Source of the DNA: Candidatus Poribacteria bacterium
GTDB taxonomy: Bacteria; Poribacteria; WGA-4E; WGA-3G
DNA length: 64,000 nt
NCBI GenBank assembly: GCA_965214095.1
Contig: OZ243938.1
Span: 4,000,001 to 4,064,000 of the forward strand
Direction of reading: 5' to 3'
Shown here: in pieces, positions 9,569-19,031 of the stretch
How positions within the stretch are numbered: the stretch's first letter is position 1
Layout of the letters: every line of letters begins with the position of its first letter
Notes under the pieces: generated by a model
Told to the model about the DNA's origin: nothing
What the model saw: only the letters and a program-made list of their open reading frames with translations
Databases searched by the model: none
Made by a program: the position numbers and the translations under genes

Positions 9569-10207
9569 ATGCAAGAAACCAGAGGGAATATGAATCTGTT
9601 TGCTGCTGAGGAATTAGAAGAAATTGACGATGATGAATTGGTTACAAACTTCCAGAATGGTGATAAGAGCGCGTTTAATACACTTGTCCTAAAATATCAG
9701 AATCGTATTGCAAAACTCATATACAGACACACGAATGATGCGGAAACTACAAAAGATCTCTGTCAAGAAACATTCTTGAAAGCATATAAGTCACTCCCAA
9801 AATTTAAACGTGAATCTGCATTTTATAGTTGGCTATATCGCATAGCAATTAATTGTTGTATTGACCATGCGCGACAGCAAAATAGAAGAAAAACAGTGTC
9901 GTATGACGAATTGCCTGTTGAACCAGAGGAGTTATTGGTTAGCAAGCATCCATCTCCGTCTCATCTGGTTGAGATGGAGGAACTCGGAGATATTATTAAC
10001 AAAGCAGTGAATCAGCTTCCAACGAAACAACAACATGTCTTTAGACTACGTTATGAAAAGAAGCTAAAGATTAAAGAGGTGGCTGTACGCATCAATCGAT
10101 CAGAGGGAACGGTAAAAACTCATTTACATCATGCCCATCAGCGGCTTCGTGAATTGTTACGTCCTTATTTGGAAAATCGTCCGTTTGAATGGGACAGTGA
10201 GATATAA
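9569..10207 (+). CDS. ECF sigma-70 factor (RpoE-like)
   Basis: DLCQETFLKAY, FYSWLYRIAIN (region 2); SEGTVKTHLHHA (region 4). Confidence 0.93.
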   Translation: MQETRGNMNLFAAEELEEIDDDELVTNFQNGDKSAFNTLVLKYQNRIAKLIYRHTNDAETTKDLCQETFLKAYKSLPKFKRESAFYSWLYRIAINCCIDHARQQNRRKTVSYDELPVEPEELLVSKHPSPSHLVEMEELGDIINKAVNQLPTKQQHVFRLRYEKKLKIKEVAVRINRSEGTVKTHLHHAHQRLRELLRPYLENRPFEWDSEI

Positions 10208-10249
10208 ATTAGGATTCGTTGTAGTGTTCTATTATTGCTTTCACGATAG

Positions 10250-12166
10250 ATGGATTCTGTTATGAAAACGAAGATTTTTTCAATTCTATTGATCTTGTTG
10301 ATTTTTTCAACGTTCATCCTACCACCTGCTATTGGCAAAGACTACACAACGTGGGAGTTACCCGAAGGTGCTACAGCACGTCTCGGTAAGAGCACGATTG
10401 AAGAAATTAAATATTCACCAGATGGTACACTACTCGCTGTCGCGGGTGAAATGGGTATTTGGCTCTATGAGGCACAGAGTGGAAAAGAACTACATCTTCT
10501 TTTAGGTAACACACAATGTCTGAACGGCATATCGTTTAGTCCGGATGGAAAAACCATTACAAGTGTAAGTAGACTCAGCGTGCGTCAGTGGGATGTTGAA
10601 TCAGGTTTGCATTTAGGAGTACTCACAACACATTCTGGCTATAGTATCGCGTATAGTCCTGATGGTAAACTCTTGGCAATTGGGGGTTATGATGGAGGGG
10701 CAAATGATGTCATCTATCTGTTGGATGCCGAATTTGCTGAACGCTTACACGTTTTCAGGAAACATAAAGGAAGAATTACAAGTGTATCATTCAGTCCAGA
10801 CGGTAGCATGCTCGTAAGTGGAGATGAAACTGGTTTCATTCATCTTTGGGATGTGGTCTCTGGTTCACATTTGTGGACATTTAAAAGGAATAAAATCTTC
10901 AGGAGTCATAATTCTGGGATTACCCATATTTCCTTTAGTCCCAATGAAAAGATAATCGCAAGTGCAAGCGAGAATGGTATCATCCGGATATGGAATACTG
11001 AACCCGGTGACCACCTACGTATTCTCAAAGGACATGGAGGTAGAGTAGATAGCATTTCTTTCAGTCCAGATGGAAAAACTATTGTAAGTGGCGGTTGGGA
11101 TCATACTATTCGTTTGTGGGAAGTCGAATCTGGGGAGCACCTAAACACTTTTAAAGGGCATACAAGTCATATTCGAAGTATTTCTTTCAGTCCGGATGGG
11201 AAAACAATCGCGAGCGGGAGTTGGGACCAAACTATCCGTTTGTGGGATGTCAAATCTGGTAGACAACTGATAACTATCACGGGACATACTGGACGTCTTA
11301 GTAATATAACAATAAATCCGGATGGGAAAACAATTGCGGGTGGATATGGAGGTGATGACTGTATTCGCCTGTGGGATATTAAGTCCAATCAACAACTGCA
11401 AGTTCTCAGGGGGCATGAAATTTCTATTGAGAATGTAGCATTCAGTCCAGATGGAAAATTCATCATCAGTGGAAGTCAGGACAAAACTGTTCGTCTCTGG
11501 GATGTTGCTTCTGCTAAACACTTACACACCTTTATCGGACATACGGGTAGAGTGTTCAGTGTAGCCTTCAGTTCGGATGGAAAAACAATCGCAAGTGGGA
11601 GCCATGACAATACTATCCGTTTATGGGATGTTGACTCTAAAACACATTTGTCAACGCTTAGAGGACATTTATCGGATGTTGCTTGTGTCTCATTCAGTCC
11701 GGATGGAAAAACAATCGCAAGTGGGAGCCATGACAATACTATCCGTTTATGGGATGTTGTTACTGGCAAACATCTGCACACTTATAAGGGACATAAAAGG
11801 ACTGTTGAAGGTATTTCATTCAGTCCTGATGGGAAAACATTCGCAAGCGGGAGTTGGGACCAAACCGTCCGCCTATGGGATGTTATGTCAGGAACAAATT
11901 TGCACACATTTAGAGGTCATACCAGTTGGGTTCGCTGTGTCTCATTCAGTCCTGATGGAGAAACAATTGCAAGCGGCGGTTCTGACAGAACTATCCAATT
12001 TTGGGATGTTGCATCTGGTATATCCACGCGTTCCTTCAATGAACATTCATCTATAAAAAGTCTATCATTTACGCCAGATGGCAACACATTAGTTAGTAGC
12101 AGTATCGGCGGCAGTCTTCTTATCTGGAATCTCGCACCTACGAACAGTAATAGTAATTACGATTAA
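10250..12166 (+). CDS. Secreted WD40-repeat protein (about 14 blades)
   Basis: Signal peptide; repeated GH...SFSPDGKTIASGSxDxTIRLWD units; start may be the second Met (10262). Confidence 0.92.
   Translation: MDSVMKTKIFSILLILLIFSTFILPPAIGKDYTTWELPEGATARLGKSTIEEIKYSPDGTLLAVAGEMGIWLYEAQSGKELHLLLGNTQCLNGISFSPDGKTITSVSRLSVRQWDVESGLHLGVLTTHSGYSIAYSPDGKLLAIGGYDGGANDVIYLLDAEFAERLHVFRKHKGRITSVSFSPDGSMLVSGDETGFIHLWDVVSGSHLWTFKRNKIFRSHNSGITHISFSPNEKIIASASENGIIRIWNTEPGDHLRILKGHGGRVDSISFSPDGKTIVSGGWDHTIRLWEVESGEHLNTFKGHTSHIRSISFSPDGKTIASGSWDQTIRLWDVKSGRQLITITGHTGRLSNITINPDGKTIAGGYGGDDCIRLWDIKSNQQLQVLRGHEISIENVAFSPDGKFIISGSQDKTVRLWDVASAKHLHTFIGHTGRVFSVAFSSDGKTIASGSHDNTIRLWDVDSKTHLSTLRGHLSDVACVSFSPDGKTIASGSHDNTIRLWDVVTGKHLHTYKGHKRTVEGISFSPDGKTFASGSWDQTVRLWDVMSGTNLHTFRGHTSWVRCVSFSPDGETIASGGSDRTIQFWDVASGISTRSFNEHSSIKSLSFTPDGNTLVSSSIGGSLLIWNLAPTNSNSNYD
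11574..11759 (+). repeat. 60-bp exact direct repeat between adjacent WD40 units, 126-bp period
   Basis: 11574-11633 is identical to 11700-11759. Confidence 0.9.
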
Positions 12167-12185
12167 AATACTATGTGGATTAAAC

Positions 12186-12214
12186 TTGACACAAACTAAA
12201 AATTAAGGTATTAT
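12186..12214 (+). promoter_or_regulatory. Sigma-70 promoter of leader-hisI-trpE-trpG
   Basis: TTGACA (12186-12191), 17 bp, TATTAT (12209-12214). Confidence 0.75.
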
Positions 12215-12243
12215 AAAACAAAAGAATTGAAAAGGTAAATACA

Positions 12244-12336
12244 ATGGCTTTTGCTATACACTCCTATTTGAATAGAAATGGATATGATTGGCATTGGTGG
12301 CATTCCAATATCAGTGAAGGGGTGTGTGTGCACTAA
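12244..12336 (+). CDS. Attenuator leader peptide MAFAIHSYLNRNGYDWHWWHSNISEGVCVH (30 aa)
   Basis: AAAGGT RBS upstream; TGG CAT TGG TGG CAT at 12289-12303; lies between the promoter and hisI. Confidence 0.85.
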   Translation: MAFAIHSYLNRNGYDWHWWHSNISEGVCVH

Positions 12337-12370
12337 CGATTTTGTTTTATTATTTTAAAGCTATCTGTAG

Positions 12371-12414
12371 ACCTTATGCACACAACCTATGTGGCATAAG
12401 GTTTTTGTTTTTTT
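12371..12414 (+). terminator. Attenuator intrinsic terminator
   Basis: ACCTTATGC...GCATAAGGT stem followed by TTTTGTTTTTTT; its 5' arm overlaps TGCACACA (12377-12384), complementary to leader TGTGTGCA (12325-12332). Confidence 0.85.
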
Positions 12415-12432
12415 AATCTCGAAGGAGAACAC

Positions 12433-12813
12433 ATGAATATACTATCTGAACTGAAATATGATAGGGACGGATTAGTCACCGCAGTAATTCAGGATCGCGA
12501 AAATAATGAAGTCCTGATGGTAGGTTATATGAACGCGGAAGCGATCAAACAAACGTTGTCAACGGGTAGCGTATGCTTCTGGAGTCGTTCCCGCCAAAAG
12601 TTGTGGATTAAGGGGGAGACTTCAGGACATACACAGACTGTCGAATCTATCGCGGTCGATTGTGATGGCGATGCCTTGCTGATAAAGGTTGAGCAGAAGG
12701 TAGCAGCATGTCATACTGGGTACCGTTCCTGCTTCTTTCGGGAAGTCTCCCCCGATGGTGAGTCAACAGAAGTCGTAGGTGAAAAGATATTTGATGCGGA
12801 TGCGGTTTATTAG
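12433..12813 (+). CDS. hisI: Phosphoribosyl-AMP cyclohydrolase
   Basis: [36 protein letters not shown]. Confidence 0.97.
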
Positions 12814-12888
12814 AAAATAATTTTGCTTATTTTCGTGTCTTAGCATCAGATAGTTGGTTATTTATACCAAAGATAGATAATGAAGGTA

Positions 12889-12993
12889 TTATAGTAGATT
12901 TTGAAATTACTTGAACACTCTGCATCGGCGGGGTTAGGAAACCTCGTCTACCGCGGAACGATAGTGTCAACTTGTATGCTAAATTGACTATAT
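12889..12993 (-). mobile_element. MITE/REP-like element family A, inverted copy of 9153-9257, between hisI and trpE
   Basis: TTATAGTAGATTTTGAAATTACTTGAACACTCTGCATCGGCGGGGTTAGGAAACCTCGTCTAC...GACTATA; same 105-bp length. Confidence 0.8.
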
Positions 12994-13037
12994 TACAATA
13001 TTAGATACAGGCTAAGGATACGAAAAGGAGTTTTGCA

Positions 13038-14540
13038 ATGTATTATCCTACATTGAAGGAATTTAGAGACAAAGCGAAAGAAGGCAACACGATTCCGGTA
13101 TATCGTCCGATTTTGGCAGATATGGAGACACCGGTATCAGCATTCTACAAGTTGATGCCAGACAATTTTGCCTTCTTATTAGAAAGTGTTGAAGGTGGAG
13201 AACAAGTTGCACGCTACTCATTTCTGGGTGGTCAACCGTCAATACTGTTCCATACGAAGGGACATGAGGTGACCATTGAGTATTTGACGAAGGGTGAGAA
13301 GGTGTGCAAGGAATACGATGACCCATTGAAAGCACTTGAAGAGTTGATGCACAATTATCAACCTGTCAAAGTTGATGGACTACCAGAATTCCACGGCGGT
13401 GCTGTTGGGTATATGACTTATGATATGGTGCGGTTCGTGGAAGAATTGCCAGATGATAATGAAGATGAACTACAACTACCCGACTCTTTTTTCATGATTG
13501 CAGAAACATTGCTGATCTTTGATCATGTTAATCATCAGATCAAAGTTGTTGCAAACGCGCATATTGATGGAGATGTTGACGCAGCTTATGCCGATGCAAT
13601 TGGGAAAATAGAGGCATTGGTTGAAAAACTGACAACTGTTTCTGACATATCTGCAGTTGGAAACAGAGAACAGAATACAGAACACCATCCTGATCCGATA
13701 CCTGATCCACAATCTAATTTCACGAAGCCTGACTATGAAGATGTGGTAAGACGCGCCAAAGAATACATCGCTGCGGGGGATATTATTCAAGTCGTGCCTT
13801 CACAGCGGTTCAGTCGTCCTGTATCTGTTGACTCGTTTGATATTTATCGCGCATTGCGAGTGGTGAATCCGTCACCTTATATGTATTATCTTAAGTGTAA
13901 TGGATTTGACATTGTAGGGGCTTCTCCAGAGATGATGGTACGGGTAGAGGATGGTATTGTCCAAACCATGCCAATTGCTGGAACACGTCCGCGTGGGAAG
14001 AATACTGAAGAGGACCAAGCATTAGCGGAGGAACTTCTTTCCGATCCTAAGGAACGGGCAGAACATGTCATGCTTGTGGATTTAGGGAGAAACGACCTTG
14101 GACGTGTATGTGAATACCATTCTGTCAAGGTTACCGATTTGATGATAATTGAAAGGTTTTCCCACGTGATGCACATTGTCTCACATGTTGTTGGAAGGTT
14201 ACGTGAAAATCTATCGGCTTACGATGTTATTCGCGCTTGTCTCCCCGCAGGCACACTCTCTGGTGCACCAAAAATACGTGCAATGGAGATCATTGACGAA
14301 CTGGAATCTACGCGTCGTGGTCCCTATGGTGGTGCAGTAGGCTATTTCAGTTTCTCTGGTAGTGCAGACACAGCGATTACTATACGAACTGCAGTCATCA
14401 AAGATGGGACTGCTTATGTGCAAGCAGGTGGCGGTGTCGTTGCTGATTCAATACCTGAAAATGAATACTATGAAACCGTTAGTAAAGCATGGGCAATGCT
14501 TACTGCTATTGAAATGGCACAACAAGGTCTAATATTATAG
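13038..14540 (+). CDS. trpE: Anthranilate synthase component I
   Basis: [46 protein letters not shown]. Confidence 0.96.
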
Positions 14541-14550
14541 GAGAGAAAAG

Positions 14551-15114
14551 ATGGTATTGATGATTGACAATTACGACTCTTTTACCTACAATCTTGTACA
14601 ATACCTCGGTGAACTCGGTGCGGATTTAGAGGTACATCGCAGTCGGAAAATAGGCATAGATGAATTAGACGTATTGGAACCTGAACGGGTTGTGATTTCA
14701 CCCGGACCTTGCACACCACGAGAAGCGGGAATTTCAAACGATGTGATAAAACACTATGCTGGGAAGGTGCCGATATTAGGAGTGTGTCTTGGACATCAGT
14801 GTATCGGTGATGTGTTTGGTGGTGAAGTGGTGCGTGCTGATAGGTTGATGCATGGTAAGACCTCAATGATAATGCATAATGATAGAGAGCTATTTGAGGG
14901 ATTGGATAATCCGTTTGAAGCGACACGTTACCACTCGTTGATTGTTAAGAAAGACACGTTACCGGATTGTTTGGAAATCACTGCATGGACGGATGCGGAT
15001 GAAATTATGGGGATTCGCCATAAAACTTTGCCGATTTGGGGTGTTCAGTTTCATCCTGAATCAATTCTGACAACAGCCGGAAAGAGTCTATTAGGGAACT
15101 TTTTGGCACTATAA
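14551..15114 (+). CDS. trpG: Anthranilate synthase component II (glutamine amidotransferase)
   Basis: [24 protein letters not shown]; follows trpE. Confidence 0.93.
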
Positions 15115-15140
15115 ATAGGAATTGGAAACAAATAACAGAT

Positions 15141-15911
15141 ATGACAAATTCAAAAGAAAACAAAGTGCCTACACCTGTTCTCGTTTCTTGGTCTTCAGGA
15201 AAAGATTCGGCTTGGGCATTACATACATTACGTCAACAACCTGAAAAATACGATGTGCGTGGTATCTTTACCACTGTTACAAAGACCTTTGACCGTGTTT
15301 CTATCCATTCTACACCTGCGTGGGTTTTGAAACAACAGGCTGAGAAACTCGATGTGCCGTTGTATGAGATACCGATTCCGTATCCTTGTTCAAATGAGAT
15401 ATATGAAGCAGCGATGCGTAAGTTTCTTGCTGAAGTAGAAGCGTTACCTAAGAATTTGACAGCATCTCATTTTGCATTCGGTGATCTTTTTCTTGAAGAT
15501 ATCCGCGCGTATCGTGAGGAAAAACTGCATGGAACAGGTTTCACACCGATATTTCCGGTTTGGGGTGAAGATACGACAATTCTTGCCAATAAGATGATTG
15601 CGTCTGGTTTGCGTGCGATTGTCACTGCTCTCAATCCAACCAAAGTACCTGCTGATTTTGCAGGACGATGGTTTGATGCGGAACTCCTTGCGGAATTACC
15701 TGATGAAGTGGATCCACTCGGTGAGAATGGGGAGTTTCATACTTGTGTTGTTGATGGTCCTATGTTCAGTTCTCCAGTTGCTGCGAAACCCGGTAAAATC
15801 GTGGAGAGGGATATTGTTTCTGCCTCCAAAGACGACGATGACAAAATTCACAGTAGCAACACCTCTCCTCCTACTTATGTGTATGCTGACGTTGTACCTC
15901 TGGATGTTTAG
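15141..15911 (+). CDS. PP-loop ATP pyrophosphatase, MJ0570/diphthine-ammonia ligase-like
   Basis: SWSSGKDS PP-loop, FGDLFLED, DPLGENGEFHT. Confidence 0.88.
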   Translation: MTNSKENKVPTPVLVSWSSGKDSAWALHTLRQQPEKYDVRGIFTTVTKTFDRVSIHSTPAWVLKQQAEKLDVPLYEIPIPYPCSNEIYEAAMRKFLAEVEALPKNLTASHFAFGDLFLEDIRAYREEKLHGTGFTPIFPVWGEDTTILANKMIASGLRAIVTALNPTKVPADFAGRWFDAELLAELPDEVDPLGENGEFHTCVVDGPMFSSPVAAKPGKIVERDIVSASKDDDDKIHSSNTSPPTYVYADVVPLDV

Positions 15912-16004
15912 TCGGGTTAAAACGTAAGCGAAATTAATAATATCACTTTCAACAATCATATCATAACTCTTTTATCATATCACACTCCTATTTGTGCAAA
16001 ATTA

Positions 16005-16038
16005 TGCACCCGATTTGCACCTTCAAGGTGTCACTATA
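16005..16038 (+). promoter_or_regulatory. Putative ECF autoregulatory promoter
   Basis: TGCACCCGATT-N15-TCACTATA; same motif and spacing at 21366-21399. Confidence 0.55.
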
Positions 16039-16058
16039 TGTGAAATCGGAGGTGATCC

Positions 16059-19031
16059 ATGAAAAACAACGACACACAATTAATCCACCGCGCTCTTGAT
16101 GGCGATGATTTTGCCTATGCGGAACTTGTAGAGAAATATCAAAAACAGGTTCACGCGCTTGTGTGGCGGAAAATCGGAGATTTTCATATTGCCGAAGAGA
16201 TTACACAGGATACATTTCTGAAGGCATATCAGAAACTCGGAACACTCAAGAATCCGCATCGTTTTGCAAGTTGGCTCTATGTGATTGCAGCGAACCGATG
16301 CAGCACGTGGTTGCGTAAAAAGAATTCACGTAAGCAACTGTTGGAAGATAAGGATATCACGCAACCTGAAGAAGCGACTTATTCTGAGTATGTGCTTGAG
16401 GAGAACGAACGGATCACCATAGAGACACAACGCGATGTCGTCCAAAAACTCCTTGCAAAGCTTGGGGAAAGTGAACGAACTGTTATGACATTGCATTACT
16501 TCGGAGAGATGTCGTGTGCGGAGATCGGAGCATTTATGGGTGTATCAGCAAATACGGTTAAGAGCCGTCTCCGTCGCGCACAGCAGCGACTACAAAAGGA
16601 GGAAACAATGATAAGAGAGGCTTTAGACAACTTCCAAATATCACCAAATCTGACAGAAAACATTATACGCGAGATTTCACATACAAAACCCACCACGCCG
16701 ACTGGTGGTAAACCTATTGTTCCGTGGGCAATGGCTGTTTCCACTTTAGCAGTGGTGTTGCTGATGATCGGTTTTGGAAACCATCTATCTTTTGGGATTT
16801 TTCAAAAACCGTATAGTCTCGATTCGCCTGCAGAGATGAAGGTTGAGATCGTTGAAGCGTTGATAGTCGCGGACTTGGAGTCCAAACCTGATGTGCAAAC
16901 ACAGAGCACGGGGGCAAACGTTTTTGGTGCGCGAAATAACCTTGAACAGCAACCTAACGATACCACTGTGCTTACTACAGAGACACAAGCAGAGAAAATA
17001 GTTGAAGATTGGACACCTGTGGAAAATTATACACAATGGGAACTGCCAAAAGCTGCGAAAGCACGTTTAGGAAAGGGTGGAATTAGATCAATGCAATTTT
17101 CACCAGATGGTTCTCTACTTGCTCTAGGCAGTAATATCGGTGTGTGGCTATACGATGTCAAAACTGGTCAGGAATTATCCATGTATCCAGGTAATTGTCA
17201 ATCCATTGCCTTTTCACCTGATGGACTTTCCCTTGCAAGTAGTGGTAGAAGTAGTGAAAATGAACTTGTTATTTGGGATGTTTCTACCAGGCCAAAACAA
17301 ATACTGACAGAACCACAACCTGCTGCAGCAGTGTTGCGGTTTGATGATAATAAAACACTCGTCAGCTTGAATAAATCAAGAGACAATATTAACAGATTGG
17401 ACATAAATACTGGCAGAAGTTCCGTAACCCCTATTGGTATTCCTCCTAGTTCCTTTTTATCTGAACCTTATGCACTTTCACATGACAAATTAGCAGTAGG
17501 TAATCAGGATGGAACGATTGATCTGTGGGAAACAACCAGTGGAGAGAGTTATGCCACCTATGGTGAATCAGGTTATAGTAAACATGTTTTCACACTTGCA
17601 TTTTCTCCCGATGGCACGCGACTTGCTAGTGGTGGAGAAGATACATTGGTTCGATTATGGAATATTTTAGGTGATGATGAACCGATTATCCTTCAAAAAC
17701 ATACAGAATGGGTAAACGTTTTAGCATTCTCTCCAGATGGAAAAAAACTTGCCAGCGGGAGTACTGATAGGACAGTTCAATTGTGGGATACTTCAACTGG
17801 TGAACGACTCATGACTTTCACAGGTCACATTAACGGAATCACAGCACTAACATTTGCTCCAAATGGAACAACACTTGCATCAGCAAGTGCGGATGGGACT
17901 GTCAGGTTTTGGAATACAGATAATGGAACTCTTCTACCAACCACTATCACGGGGCATCTGGAATGGGTGCCAACGGTGTCTTTTCTTGGAGATAGCACAA
18001 CACTTGCAAGTGTTGCTTTCAATGGGGTAATAAATTTATGGGATTTGGATACTTCGCTAACAACTATCCAACACATCTCAGGATATCGAGACGGATTGGC
18101 TGCAGTAGCGTTTTCCTCTGATGGAACAAAACTTGCAAACATTGGCATAGAAGGTAAGGCAATCTATGTAACTGGCAATGGTTTTTCAAATGCCAGTAGT
18201 ATACCTGATGATATTATCCGTTTAAAGGATGTAAGAACAGGAAATGAGTTGCAGAATTTGAAAGGTGCGAGAAATTCTGATGCTGTTGTCTTTTCACCTG
18301 ATGGAAACACGGTAGCTTTTGGTGGACACGGGAACATTCGCTTGTGGAATACTGAGACAGATGAGATCACTGAAATTCCTCTCAATAATTACATTGATAA
18401 CAAGGGTGACTCTCACCATGCGAGAGTAACAACTTTGGTATTCTCACCTGATGGAAATGAAATTGTCTGTGGTACAATGGGAGGAAAAGTACATAAGTGG
18501 AATGTCGATACTGGAGAGAGACATATTCGAGATCCGCTCTTTGACACACAAGTACCACTTGCGAAGGAAACACGACGTTTAGTTCGTGCTAAGATAAATC
18601 GTACATCTGATGATAGCGAGCATGATACGAAAAATGTAGAACTGCTTGAAGATGTTGGCATTTCATATAACGAGGCTATATCGACATTAGCATTTTCACC
18701 AGATGGAGGATTGCTTGCTATCGGTAGTACTAGACGCATCCATTTATTGGGCATTGAGAAACAGATCAGTTTCAGGGAACTACTCCGTTCAGCGGAAGTG
18801 TTACGGTTTACACAGGATAACAACATGCTTTTATGTGGACTCATAGATGGTAGAATTGAAGTATGGGAATTGTCTACTGTGGGTATACTGGCAACGCTTG
18901 AGGGACATACTGGGTCTGTGCAGTCTCTGGTATTCTCATCTGATGGAAAAACCCTTGTCAGTACAGGGAAAGATGGTACAATCCTTGTGTGGGATTGGGA
19001 TGAAATGCTTAAAGTATCGGCAGAAGAATAA
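16059..19031 (+). CDS. ECF sigma factor fused to a TM helix and a C-terminal WD40 propeller domain
   Basis: Sigma regions 2/4 (AEEITQDTFLKAY, NTVKSRLRRA), hydrophobic helix PWAMAVSTLAVVLLMIGFG, WD40 repeats to the C-terminus. Confidence 0.92.
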   Translation: MKNNDTQLIHRALDGDDFAYAELVEKYQKQVHALVWRKIGDFHIAEEITQDTFLKAYQKLGTLKNPHRFASWLYVIAANRCSTWLRKKNSRKQLLEDKDITQPEEATYSEYVLEENERITIETQRDVVQKLLAKLGESERTVMTLHYFGEMSCAEIGAFMGVSANTVKSRLRRAQQRLQKEETMIREALDNFQISPNLTENIIREISHTKPTTPTGGKPIVPWAMAVSTLAVVLLMIGFGNHLSFGIFQKPYSLDSPAEMKVEIVEALIVADLESKPDVQTQSTGANVFGARNNLEQQPNDTTVLTTETQAEKIVEDWTPVENYTQWELPKAAKARLGKGGIRSMQFSPDGSLLALGSNIGVWLYDVKTGQELSMYPGNCQSIAFSPDGLSLASSGRSSENELVIWDVSTRPKQILTEPQPAAAVLRFDDNKTLVSLNKSRDNINRLDINTGRSSVTPIGIPPSSFLSEPYALSHDKLAVGNQDGTIDLWETTSGESYATYGESGYSKHVFTLAFSPDGTRLASGGEDTLVRLWNILGDDEPIILQKHTEWVNVLAFSPDGKKLASGSTDRTVQLWDTSTGERLMTFTGHINGITALTFAPNGTTLASASADGTVRFWNTDNGTLLPTTITGHLEWVPTVSFLGDSTTLASVAFNGVINLWDLDTSLTTIQHISGYRDGLAAVAFSSDGTKLANIGIEGKAIYVTGNGFSNASSIPDDIIRLKDVRTGNELQNLKGARNSDAVVFSPDGNTVAFGGHGNIRLWNTETDEITEIPLNNYIDNKGDSHHARVTTLVFSPDGNEIVCGTMGGKVHKWNVDTGERHIRDPLFDTQVPLAKETRRLVRAKINRTSDDSEHDTKNVELLEDVGISYNEAISTLAFSPDGGLLAIGSTRRIHLLGIEKQISFRELLRSAEVLRFTQDNNMLLCGLIDGRIEVWELSTVGILATLEGHTGSVQSLVFSSDGKTLVSTGKDGTILVWDWDEMLKVSAEE

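Follow-up and report, generated by a model that had tools for sequence, protein, structure and literature searches.

The stretch of DNA analysed here, in the following called the window, comprises 64,000 nucleotides (nt) of contig OZ243938.1 from a Candidatus Poribacteria bacterium (assembly GCA_965214095.1, positions 4,000,001 to 4,064,000 of the forward strand). It carries the genes hisI, trpE and trpG in the same orientation, preceded by a short leader open reading frame (ORF), in which codons for tryptophan (Trp) and histidine (His) are interleaved, and by a predicted intrinsic terminator. An earlier note on this DNA had interpreted the arrangement as a dual His/Trp attenuator, and this interpretation is supported by our comparative sequence analysis. 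The features of the locus, with positions counted from the first letter of the window, are the following:

12186-12214, + strand: sigma-70-like promoter (-35 at 12186-12191, -10 at 12209-12214, spacer of 17 nt; matches 11 of 12 consensus positions)
About 8-12 nt before the leader ATG, + strand: purine-rich Shine-Dalgarno-like stretch
12244-12336, + strand: leader ORF of 30 codons plus stop (stop codon at 12334-12336; by translation)
12255-12265, + strand: strand 1, which contains the His codon 12259-12261 (by minimum-energy fold)
12289-12303, + strand: regulatory block of Trp-His-Trp-Trp-His codons (by translation)
12318-12333, + strand: strand 2, the putative 5' strand of the antiterminator, formed by the last leader codons (by complementarity)
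12371-12416, + strand: intrinsic terminator with its 5' arm (strand 3) at 12371-12384, loop at 12385-12389 and 3' arm (strand 4) at 12390-12402 (by fold)
About 12421-12427, + strand: Shine-Dalgarno sequence of hisI (by sequence)
12433-12813, + strand: hisI, phosphoribosyl-AMP cyclohydrolase, 126 amino acids (aa) (NCBIfam equivalog, 175.5 bits against a cut-off of 126)
13038-14540, + strand: trpE, anthranilate synthase component I, 500 aa (TIGR00564, 590.7 against a cut-off of 517.7)
14551-15114, + strand: trpG, glutamine amidotransferase component II, 187 aa (by profile match)
15141-15911, + strand: gene for a PF01902-type (diphthamide-synthase-like) ATP-pyrophosphatase-like protein, starting 26 nt after trpG

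Promoter, 30-codon ORF, mixed codon block, terminator and two alternative helices thus lie where the earlier note had placed them, as judged by sequence, translation and fold. Its naming of hisI, trpE and trpG also held, with profile matches above the cut-offs for hisI and trpE. As a correction, hisI and trpE do not abut: the two genes are 224 nt apart, and about 105-110 nt of this spacer are an inserted repeat. The hisI gene is the sole PF01502 match in the genome to which the window belongs and hence present in a single copy. HisI occurs in 149 of the 151 sampled genomes of the phylum, and trpE directly follows hisI on the same strand in 52 of the 54 loci that were fetched. The two exceptions (L166 from genome G027 of genus g4, and L173 from G042 of another class) carry a distant hisI with 43-45% identity. 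In families f2-f7, the hisI-trpE spacer measures 9-58 nt, except for L029, L030 and L033 (82 nt), L034 (116 nt) and L165 (121 nt); in the family of the window (f1), it ranges from 42 to 556 nt. A motif scan of the spacer in the window (12814-13037, + strand) scored neither a terminator-like nor a promoter-like site. The PF01902-type gene is also found 3' of trpG in the relatives L098, L117, L158 and L174 and is possibly the last gene of the operon.

Within the leader of the window, two further His codons accompany the block, one in strand 1 at 12259-12261 and one as the last codon at 12331-12333. The promoter-like site at 12186-12214 is the best one on the + strand in the region 11800-16200. 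On its own it proves little, since the scan as a whole returned 16 sites compared to 10.6 +/- 3.5 in shuffled sequences. The same arrangement appears in the alignment of L009, L011 and L015. As a promoter, the site is identified by its match to the consensus only.

Both the Trp and the His codons, on which the earlier note had built its dual reading, are conserved in orthologous leaders, and the outcome by which the note would have seen its idea refuted, a lack of conserved His codons, did not occur. To assess this, we used 52 loci in which hisI is the first gene (L001-L034, L117, L157-L165, L167-L172, L174 and L213) and counted the codons of the leader blocks by hand. A leader ORF was identified in 48 of them. 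In the genus of the window (g1), it is present in all 20 loci in the same frame, starting with ATG in 19 cases and with GTG in one. The 12-nt core that encodes Trp-His-Trp-Trp is invariant in this genus, and in 20 of 20 loci exactly 45 nt separate the first Trp codon of the block from the stop. The core-bearing leaders of two other families of the order show a correspondingly fixed distance of exactly 51 nt (10 of 10), while the N-terminal half of the leader peptide varies freely. Across all leaders before hisI, the exact Trp-His-Trp-Trp core occurs in 37 of 48, and in 47 of 48 at least one His codon is no more than two codons away from the Trp cluster, with one to four His codons per block. 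His codons thereby stand beside Trp codons in 14 of 15 genera from seven families. These include lineages of other orders in which HisI identity has fallen to 54-63% and the block is rearranged: His and Trp codons alternate, the cluster is preceded by three His codons, or a lone Trp codon has His codons on either side. The leaders as a set make use of the two synonymous His codons. The observation as such is real and far beyond chance.

The predicted terminator consists of a stem with one bulged base (12371/12372 to 12401/12402), followed by a T-rich run at 12402-12416. A simple terminator scan overlooked this structure, which the energy fold finds, probably because of the bulged base. Folding of 12230-12432 gave -54.4 kcal/mol compared to -41.1 +/- 3.6 kcal/mol for 200 shuffles (z -3.67), none of which was as good. 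When the terminator was laid onto 30 aligned leaders, 99.4% of the cells were paired, compared to 24-46% in controls in which the pairing partners were shifted. The end of the T-run is 24-26 nt away from the start of hisI in most loci of the genus, and the hisI ribosome-binding site is located outside of the hairpin. In L016, L017 and L019, insertions separate the terminator from hisI, and the T-run is 186-312 nt away from the gene.

Two predicted helices would compete with each other and, in part, with this terminator. The earlier note had paired 12325-12332 with 12377-12384 in the 5' arm of the terminator, and these 8 nt are indeed exact reverse complements. Its competing helix between 12257-12265 and 12318-12326 is part of the minimum-energy fold and includes two G-U pairs; a similar helix between strand 1 and strand 2 appears in unconstrained folds of relatives from the genera g1, g3 and g6. 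In the window and most of its genus, strand 1 holds a His codon. For all 30 leaders, the best partner of the terminator 5' arm among the 30-nt windows of the leader region overlaps the last leader codons. The energies of this putative antiterminator duplex range from -8.4 to -16.8 kcal/mol, and in 23 of the 30 leaders at most 15 of 300 shuffles were as good. The complementarity is kept although the arm sequences themselves differ between genus g1 and the families f2/f3. When folds were computed for a block occupied by a ribosome and a 3' arm still to be transcribed, the antiterminator formed in nine of ten cases, with -14 to -21 kcal/mol; the remaining fold, that of L024, is void, as the sequence ended before the terminator arm.

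Covariation of the helices, which the earlier note had proposed as a check, was found for the terminator, in which three pairs are changed on both sides (26 cells across 30 sequences). The antiterminator received no such support: in ten sequences from f2/f3, 353 of 500 shuffles scored as high, and the single varying pair changes on one side only (six G-U, three A-U, one G-C). The evidence for the antiterminator accordingly consists of its conserved complementarity.

We consider it probable that these elements constitute a ribosome-mediated attenuator with mixed Trp and His codons, which is relieved by a shortage of either amino acid and controls hisI-trpE-trpG and probably the next gene. Transcription would start a few bases after 12214, and a ribosome would translate the 30-codon leader. 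With charged transfer RNAs (tRNAs) for both Trp and His in plentiful supply, this ribosome would reach the stop codon at 12334-12336 and cover strand 2. The terminator at 12371-12402 could then form, and RNA polymerase would stop in the T-run. If either charged tRNA were scarce, the ribosome would stall in the block at 12289-12303 or at the His codon within strand 1. Strand 2 would remain free and pair with the 5' arm of the terminator before the 3' arm is made, so that the polymerase would read on. The element would thereby act as an OR gate for two biosynthetically unrelated amino acids, which would match an operon that holds the only hisI of the cell and the first enzyme of Trp synthesis. 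When the stop codon occupies its A site, a ribosome would cover about 12316-12346 and thus all of strand 2; when any codon of the block does so, it would reach no further than about 12313. By these footprints, with sizes as in bacterial ribosome profiling, the geometry would fit the classical race between ribosome and polymerase by which passages of PMC1183508 summarise leader-peptide attenuation. The same source states that rare amino acids give the most sensitive attenuators, which would make Trp and His well suited to this type of control. What is directly observed are the elements in the sequence, how far they are conserved, and the association of His codons with hisI. From these we infer that the leader is translated, that termination and antitermination take place, and that either amino acid elicits a response. 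Altogether, the reading as an attenuator is strongly supported by the comparison of sequences.

The link between His codons and hisI emerges from genomes in which hisI is not part of this gene group. Six genomes have trpE-trpG without a preceding hisI, and five of these possess a clearly homologous leader directly before trpE, with the same type of C-terminal end and the same terminator as the hisI-first leaders; the sixth (L179) has no leader. The Trp codons in these five leaders number 4, 2, 2, 4 and 4, and the His codons in the block 0, 1, 1, 0 and 0. Two of them stem from another class; each has four Trp codons, and His codons are lacking altogether. The three leaders of genus g4 form the other contrast. 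In a midpoint-rooted TrpE tree of 26 rows, g4 is sister to g7 and g8 (support 97/94) inside the clade of the order (97/96). As g4 thus nests within a hisI-bearing order, the simpler reading is that it lost hisI from the operon. Both contrasts go in the expected direction, the one of g4 being only partly clean. The only hisI match in the g4 genome G027 (167 aa, 43% identical) adjoins genes for a zinc-ribbon protein and two CobW-type GTPases (together at L166:2-2936, - strand). These surroundings could be a zinc-related gene cluster, and no His leader was seen upstream of this hisI.

An internal control is provided by the his genes elsewhere in the genome of the window, which hold the following element:

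C1 about 2322234-2322278 (L154:7234-7278), - strand: His-only leader ORF, upstream of hisZ-hisG-hisS (L154:3386-7025, - strand)

Among the 14 codons of this leader are four for His, of which three are adjacent, and none for Trp. A promoter-like site lies 5' of it, and a long terminator-like stem with a run of seven T follows 3', so that the whole resembles an attenuator for His alone. In 24 of 25 loci of the genus, hisZ is preceded by a leader that has three or four His codons side by side and lacks Trp codons. In these organisms' own genomes, the putative his leader therefore carries His codons, the trpE-trpG leader Trp codons and the hisI-trpE-trpG leader both. Other his and trp genes are scattered in the genome. 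The 96-nt region upstream of trpD-trpC (C1:697180-698974, - strand) has a promoter-like site and no leader ORF, trpA (C1:1353208-1354011, + strand) stands alone after repeat-rich DNA with no evident leader ORF, and the two PF00977 genes (hisA/hisF) are located behind other genes. Of the Trp pathway genes, trpE-trpG alone appear to be subject to attenuation.

Several observations weigh against a dual attenuator of the whole operon. In the hisI-first locus L023 (genus g2), the leader has one Trp and no His codon, the leader of L028 is devoid of a canonical start codon, and no recognisable leader was found in the 433-1001 nt of upstream sequence available for L034, L162, L163 and L168. The antiterminator, besides its missing covariation, is not clearly above shuffles in seven of the 30 leaders (16-79 of 300 as good). 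The tie between hisI and His codons relies on just two independent phylogenetic contrasts; two of the three g4 leaders keep one His codon without hisI, and as the TrpE tree has a midpoint root only, the other contrast may be either a gain or a loss. Co-transcription of trpE is less certain, because the spacer in the window extends over 224 nt and contains a repeat. The one to four His codons per block are moreover interleaved with Trp codons. In the model given in passages of PMC1183508, a smaller fraction of regulatory codons lowers the sensitivity to each amino acid, and a mixed leader would thus pay a cost in sensitivity because the other codons dilute the regulatory ones. Finally, strand 1 sits 24-34 nt upstream of the block, so that a ribosome stalled in the block would leave it uncovered. 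The attenuator geometry proposed in the earlier note is kept in relatives, but the helix between strands 1 and 2 is placed upstream of the block, unlike in E. coli trp. Given this position, strand 1 more probably serves to prevent readthrough in the absence of leader translation.

The strongest alternative, which we regard as unlikely, is an attenuator that senses Trp codons only, the His codons being retained by a constraint on the nascent peptide or the RNA or by shared ancestry, with no response to a shortage of His. The Trp codons are indeed denser and more regular, with three in a row-like cluster in 37 of 48 leaders, and the 12-nt core of g1, invariant at the nucleotide level, could reflect a constraint on the RNA, for example a local hairpin over the block that appears in folds. 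The His codons of the two g4 leaders and the small number of contrasts would fit this alternative as well. Nevertheless, His codons persist beside Trp codons down to a HisI identity of about 54%, in differing contexts and in either synonymous form. The two outgroup leaders that lack hisI do not have His at the position flanked by Trp codons, and in several lineages the cluster is immediately preceded by two or three additional His codons. In addition, hisI is a single-copy gene, and the first his genes of the same genome have a His-codon leader of their own. These findings favour the attenuator that responds to both amino acids.

Much less probable is that control is not mediated by the ribosome at all, and that the conserved RNA is a target of a protein or ligand or itself affects translation instead of transcription, the ORF being incidental or encoding a peptide with a function of its own. 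The missing covariation of the antiterminator would be compatible with this. However, conservation is confined to the frame, the start, the stop position and the Trp and His codons, the remainder of the peptide being variable, which is the signature of regulatory codons rather than of a folded peptide or an aptamer. The position of the T-run and of the hisI ribosome-binding site outside of the hairpin also argues against it, as does the lack of a match to any riboswitch, T-box or other family in Rfam. That the hairpin merely terminates the upstream WD40-repeat gene (10250-12166), with hisI transcribed from an unregulated promoter and the short ORF arising by chance, is very improbable: the hairpin does lie on the same strand about 205 nt after the WD40 stop codon, yet the best promoter-like site is located between that gene and the leader, leader and hairpin stay with hisI or trpE where the upstream sequences differ, and the conservation of the ORF and of its codon content greatly exceeds what chance would give.

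The proposed mixed attenuator shares traits with several known systems. Like E. coli trpL (RF00513), the leader in the window is a short ORF with adjacent Trp codons and a terminator just before the first structural gene; the putative antiterminator uses the 5' arm of the terminator, and trpE and trpG are under its predicted control. It differs from trpL in that its 30 codons include interleaved His codons, that the first controlled gene is hisI, and that it has no Rfam match. Strand 1 lies upstream of the regulatory block instead of containing it. In Salmonella and E. coli, the leader of hisL has an uninterrupted run of seven His codons. The likeness to hisL (RF00514) consists in leader His codons before a terminator that controls a histidine-biosynthesis gene. 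In contrast, hisL controls a complete his operon, whereas the window leader has one to four His codons mixed with Trp codons before hisI only, again with no Rfam match. The closer analogue of hisL is the His-only leader before hisZ-hisG-hisS in the same genome.

Leaders that respond to more than one amino acid are established in E. coli, where that of the thr operon has codons for threonine and isoleucine, and those of ilvGMEDA and ilvBN have codons for leucine, valine and isoleucine. The thr, ilvGMEDA and ilvBN operons are among those listed as attenuator-controlled in passages of PMC1183508. As in these leaders, one ORF in the window mixes codons for several amino acids, so that a shortage of any would relieve termination. 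Theirs, however, belong to one connected pathway family, while Trp and His are products of separate pathways and mirror the hybrid composition of the operon. The neighbourhood of hisI and trpE itself is presumably also found in Actinobacteria (Mycobacterium, Streptomyces). If so, the same two genes are chromosomal neighbours in another phylum. For Actinobacteria, passages of PMC1262725 report candidate RNA elements for tryptophan genes and none for histidine genes, and describe no mixed leader; likewise, the passages of PMC1262725 and PMC9413887 mention no leader that mixes His and Trp codons. The earlier note had known of no described His+Trp leader, and full-text literature searches, beyond whose reach older comparative papers lie, returned neither such a leader nor a description of attenuation in Poribacteria.

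A further predicted structure links hisI and trpE in the genus of the window. The spacer between the genes contains two additional features:

About 12824-12857 paired with about 12995-13032, + strand: spacer helix, which includes the trpE Shine-Dalgarno sequence (by energy fold)
About 12890-12997: hairpin-forming dispersed repeat, about 105-110 nt long and situated within the loop of the spacer helix (144 blastn matches in the same genome)

The first and last 45 nt of the spacer pair with -23.2 kcal/mol compared to -12.2 +/- 2.9 kcal/mol for shuffles, none of 200 being as good. Among L001-L020 of the genus, 19 loci have a spacer of 100 nt or more, and in 17 of these at most seven of 200 shuffles were as good, L009 and L011 being the exceptions. 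L117 does not reach this level either. Compensatory-looking changes within the helix occur in L010 and L013. The repeat, for which 92 of the 144 matches are at least 90 nt long, has a folded energy of -31.5 kcal/mol and is missing from the hisI-trpE spacer of close relatives. The spacer helix may couple trpE translation to hisI. As it spans the spacer and pairs with the trpE ribosome-binding site, it also lends indirect support to a single hisI-trpE transcript. We lean slightly towards a combined model, in which the regulatory codons track the gene content of the operon over evolution (His codons with hisI, missing or decaying without it), the leader works as a two-input OR gate for unrelated amino acids and, in the genus of the window, the trpE ribosome-binding site stays masked by a long-range helix until hisI has been translated to its end.

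Wider scans place the leader in context. In a crude scan of the same genome for a short ORF with hairpin and T-run before long ORFs, the hisI leader was the only one of 56 candidates with a Trp cluster. The four other top-ranked candidates precede DUF5916, TPR or unannotated genes and were rejected as false positives. The scan is insensitive and shows nothing about absence, since it missed the hisZ leader. A search for the six-codon pattern His-His-Trp-His-Trp-Trp across genome contigs returned at least 117 loci. Among the matches listed, only three precede hisI-trpE-trpG, all of them in relatives (one on a contig of G040, from another family of the same order, another with a HisI that is 91% identical), and the rest look like chance. 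As this search covered only the matches listed, which are mostly chance-like, it says nothing about other phyla. No Rfam family was matched at E up to 10 in the window region 11500-13500 except at chance level, and none at E up to 1 in seven related loci including that of the hisZ leader. Both scans together gave just four chance-level matches (E 1.9-8.9), all far below gathering scores. The T-box, Trp_leader (RF00513) and His_leader (RF00514) models were not matched in either scan.

The surroundings of the operon are made up of the following genes:

9569-12166, upstream of the leader: gene for an extracytoplasmic function (ECF) sigma factor, then the gene for a 638-aa WD40-repeat protein (10250-12166, + strand)
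16059-19031, after the operon: gene for a 990-aa WD40-repeat protein

In the genus g5 loci L024, L025 and L031 (genomes G037, G028 and G040), trpE and trpG are separated by about 720 nt, which leaves room for an extra gene.

Leader-peptide attenuation is a textbook mechanism, and the regulatory codons of a leader are expected to name the product of one pathway family. While the mechanism proposed here is a known one, the co-occurrence of His and Trp codons in a single leader appears to be new. The comparison of leaders with and without hisI amounts to a natural experiment: if our reading is true, the codon content of a leader can be rewritten to fit a new operon composition, and evolution has produced a natural two-input switch for two unrelated amino acids. 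It would also extend leader-peptide attenuation to an uncultivated candidate phylum, Candidatus Poribacteria, and suggests that in these organisms the supply of hisI and of anthranilate synthase is coordinated.

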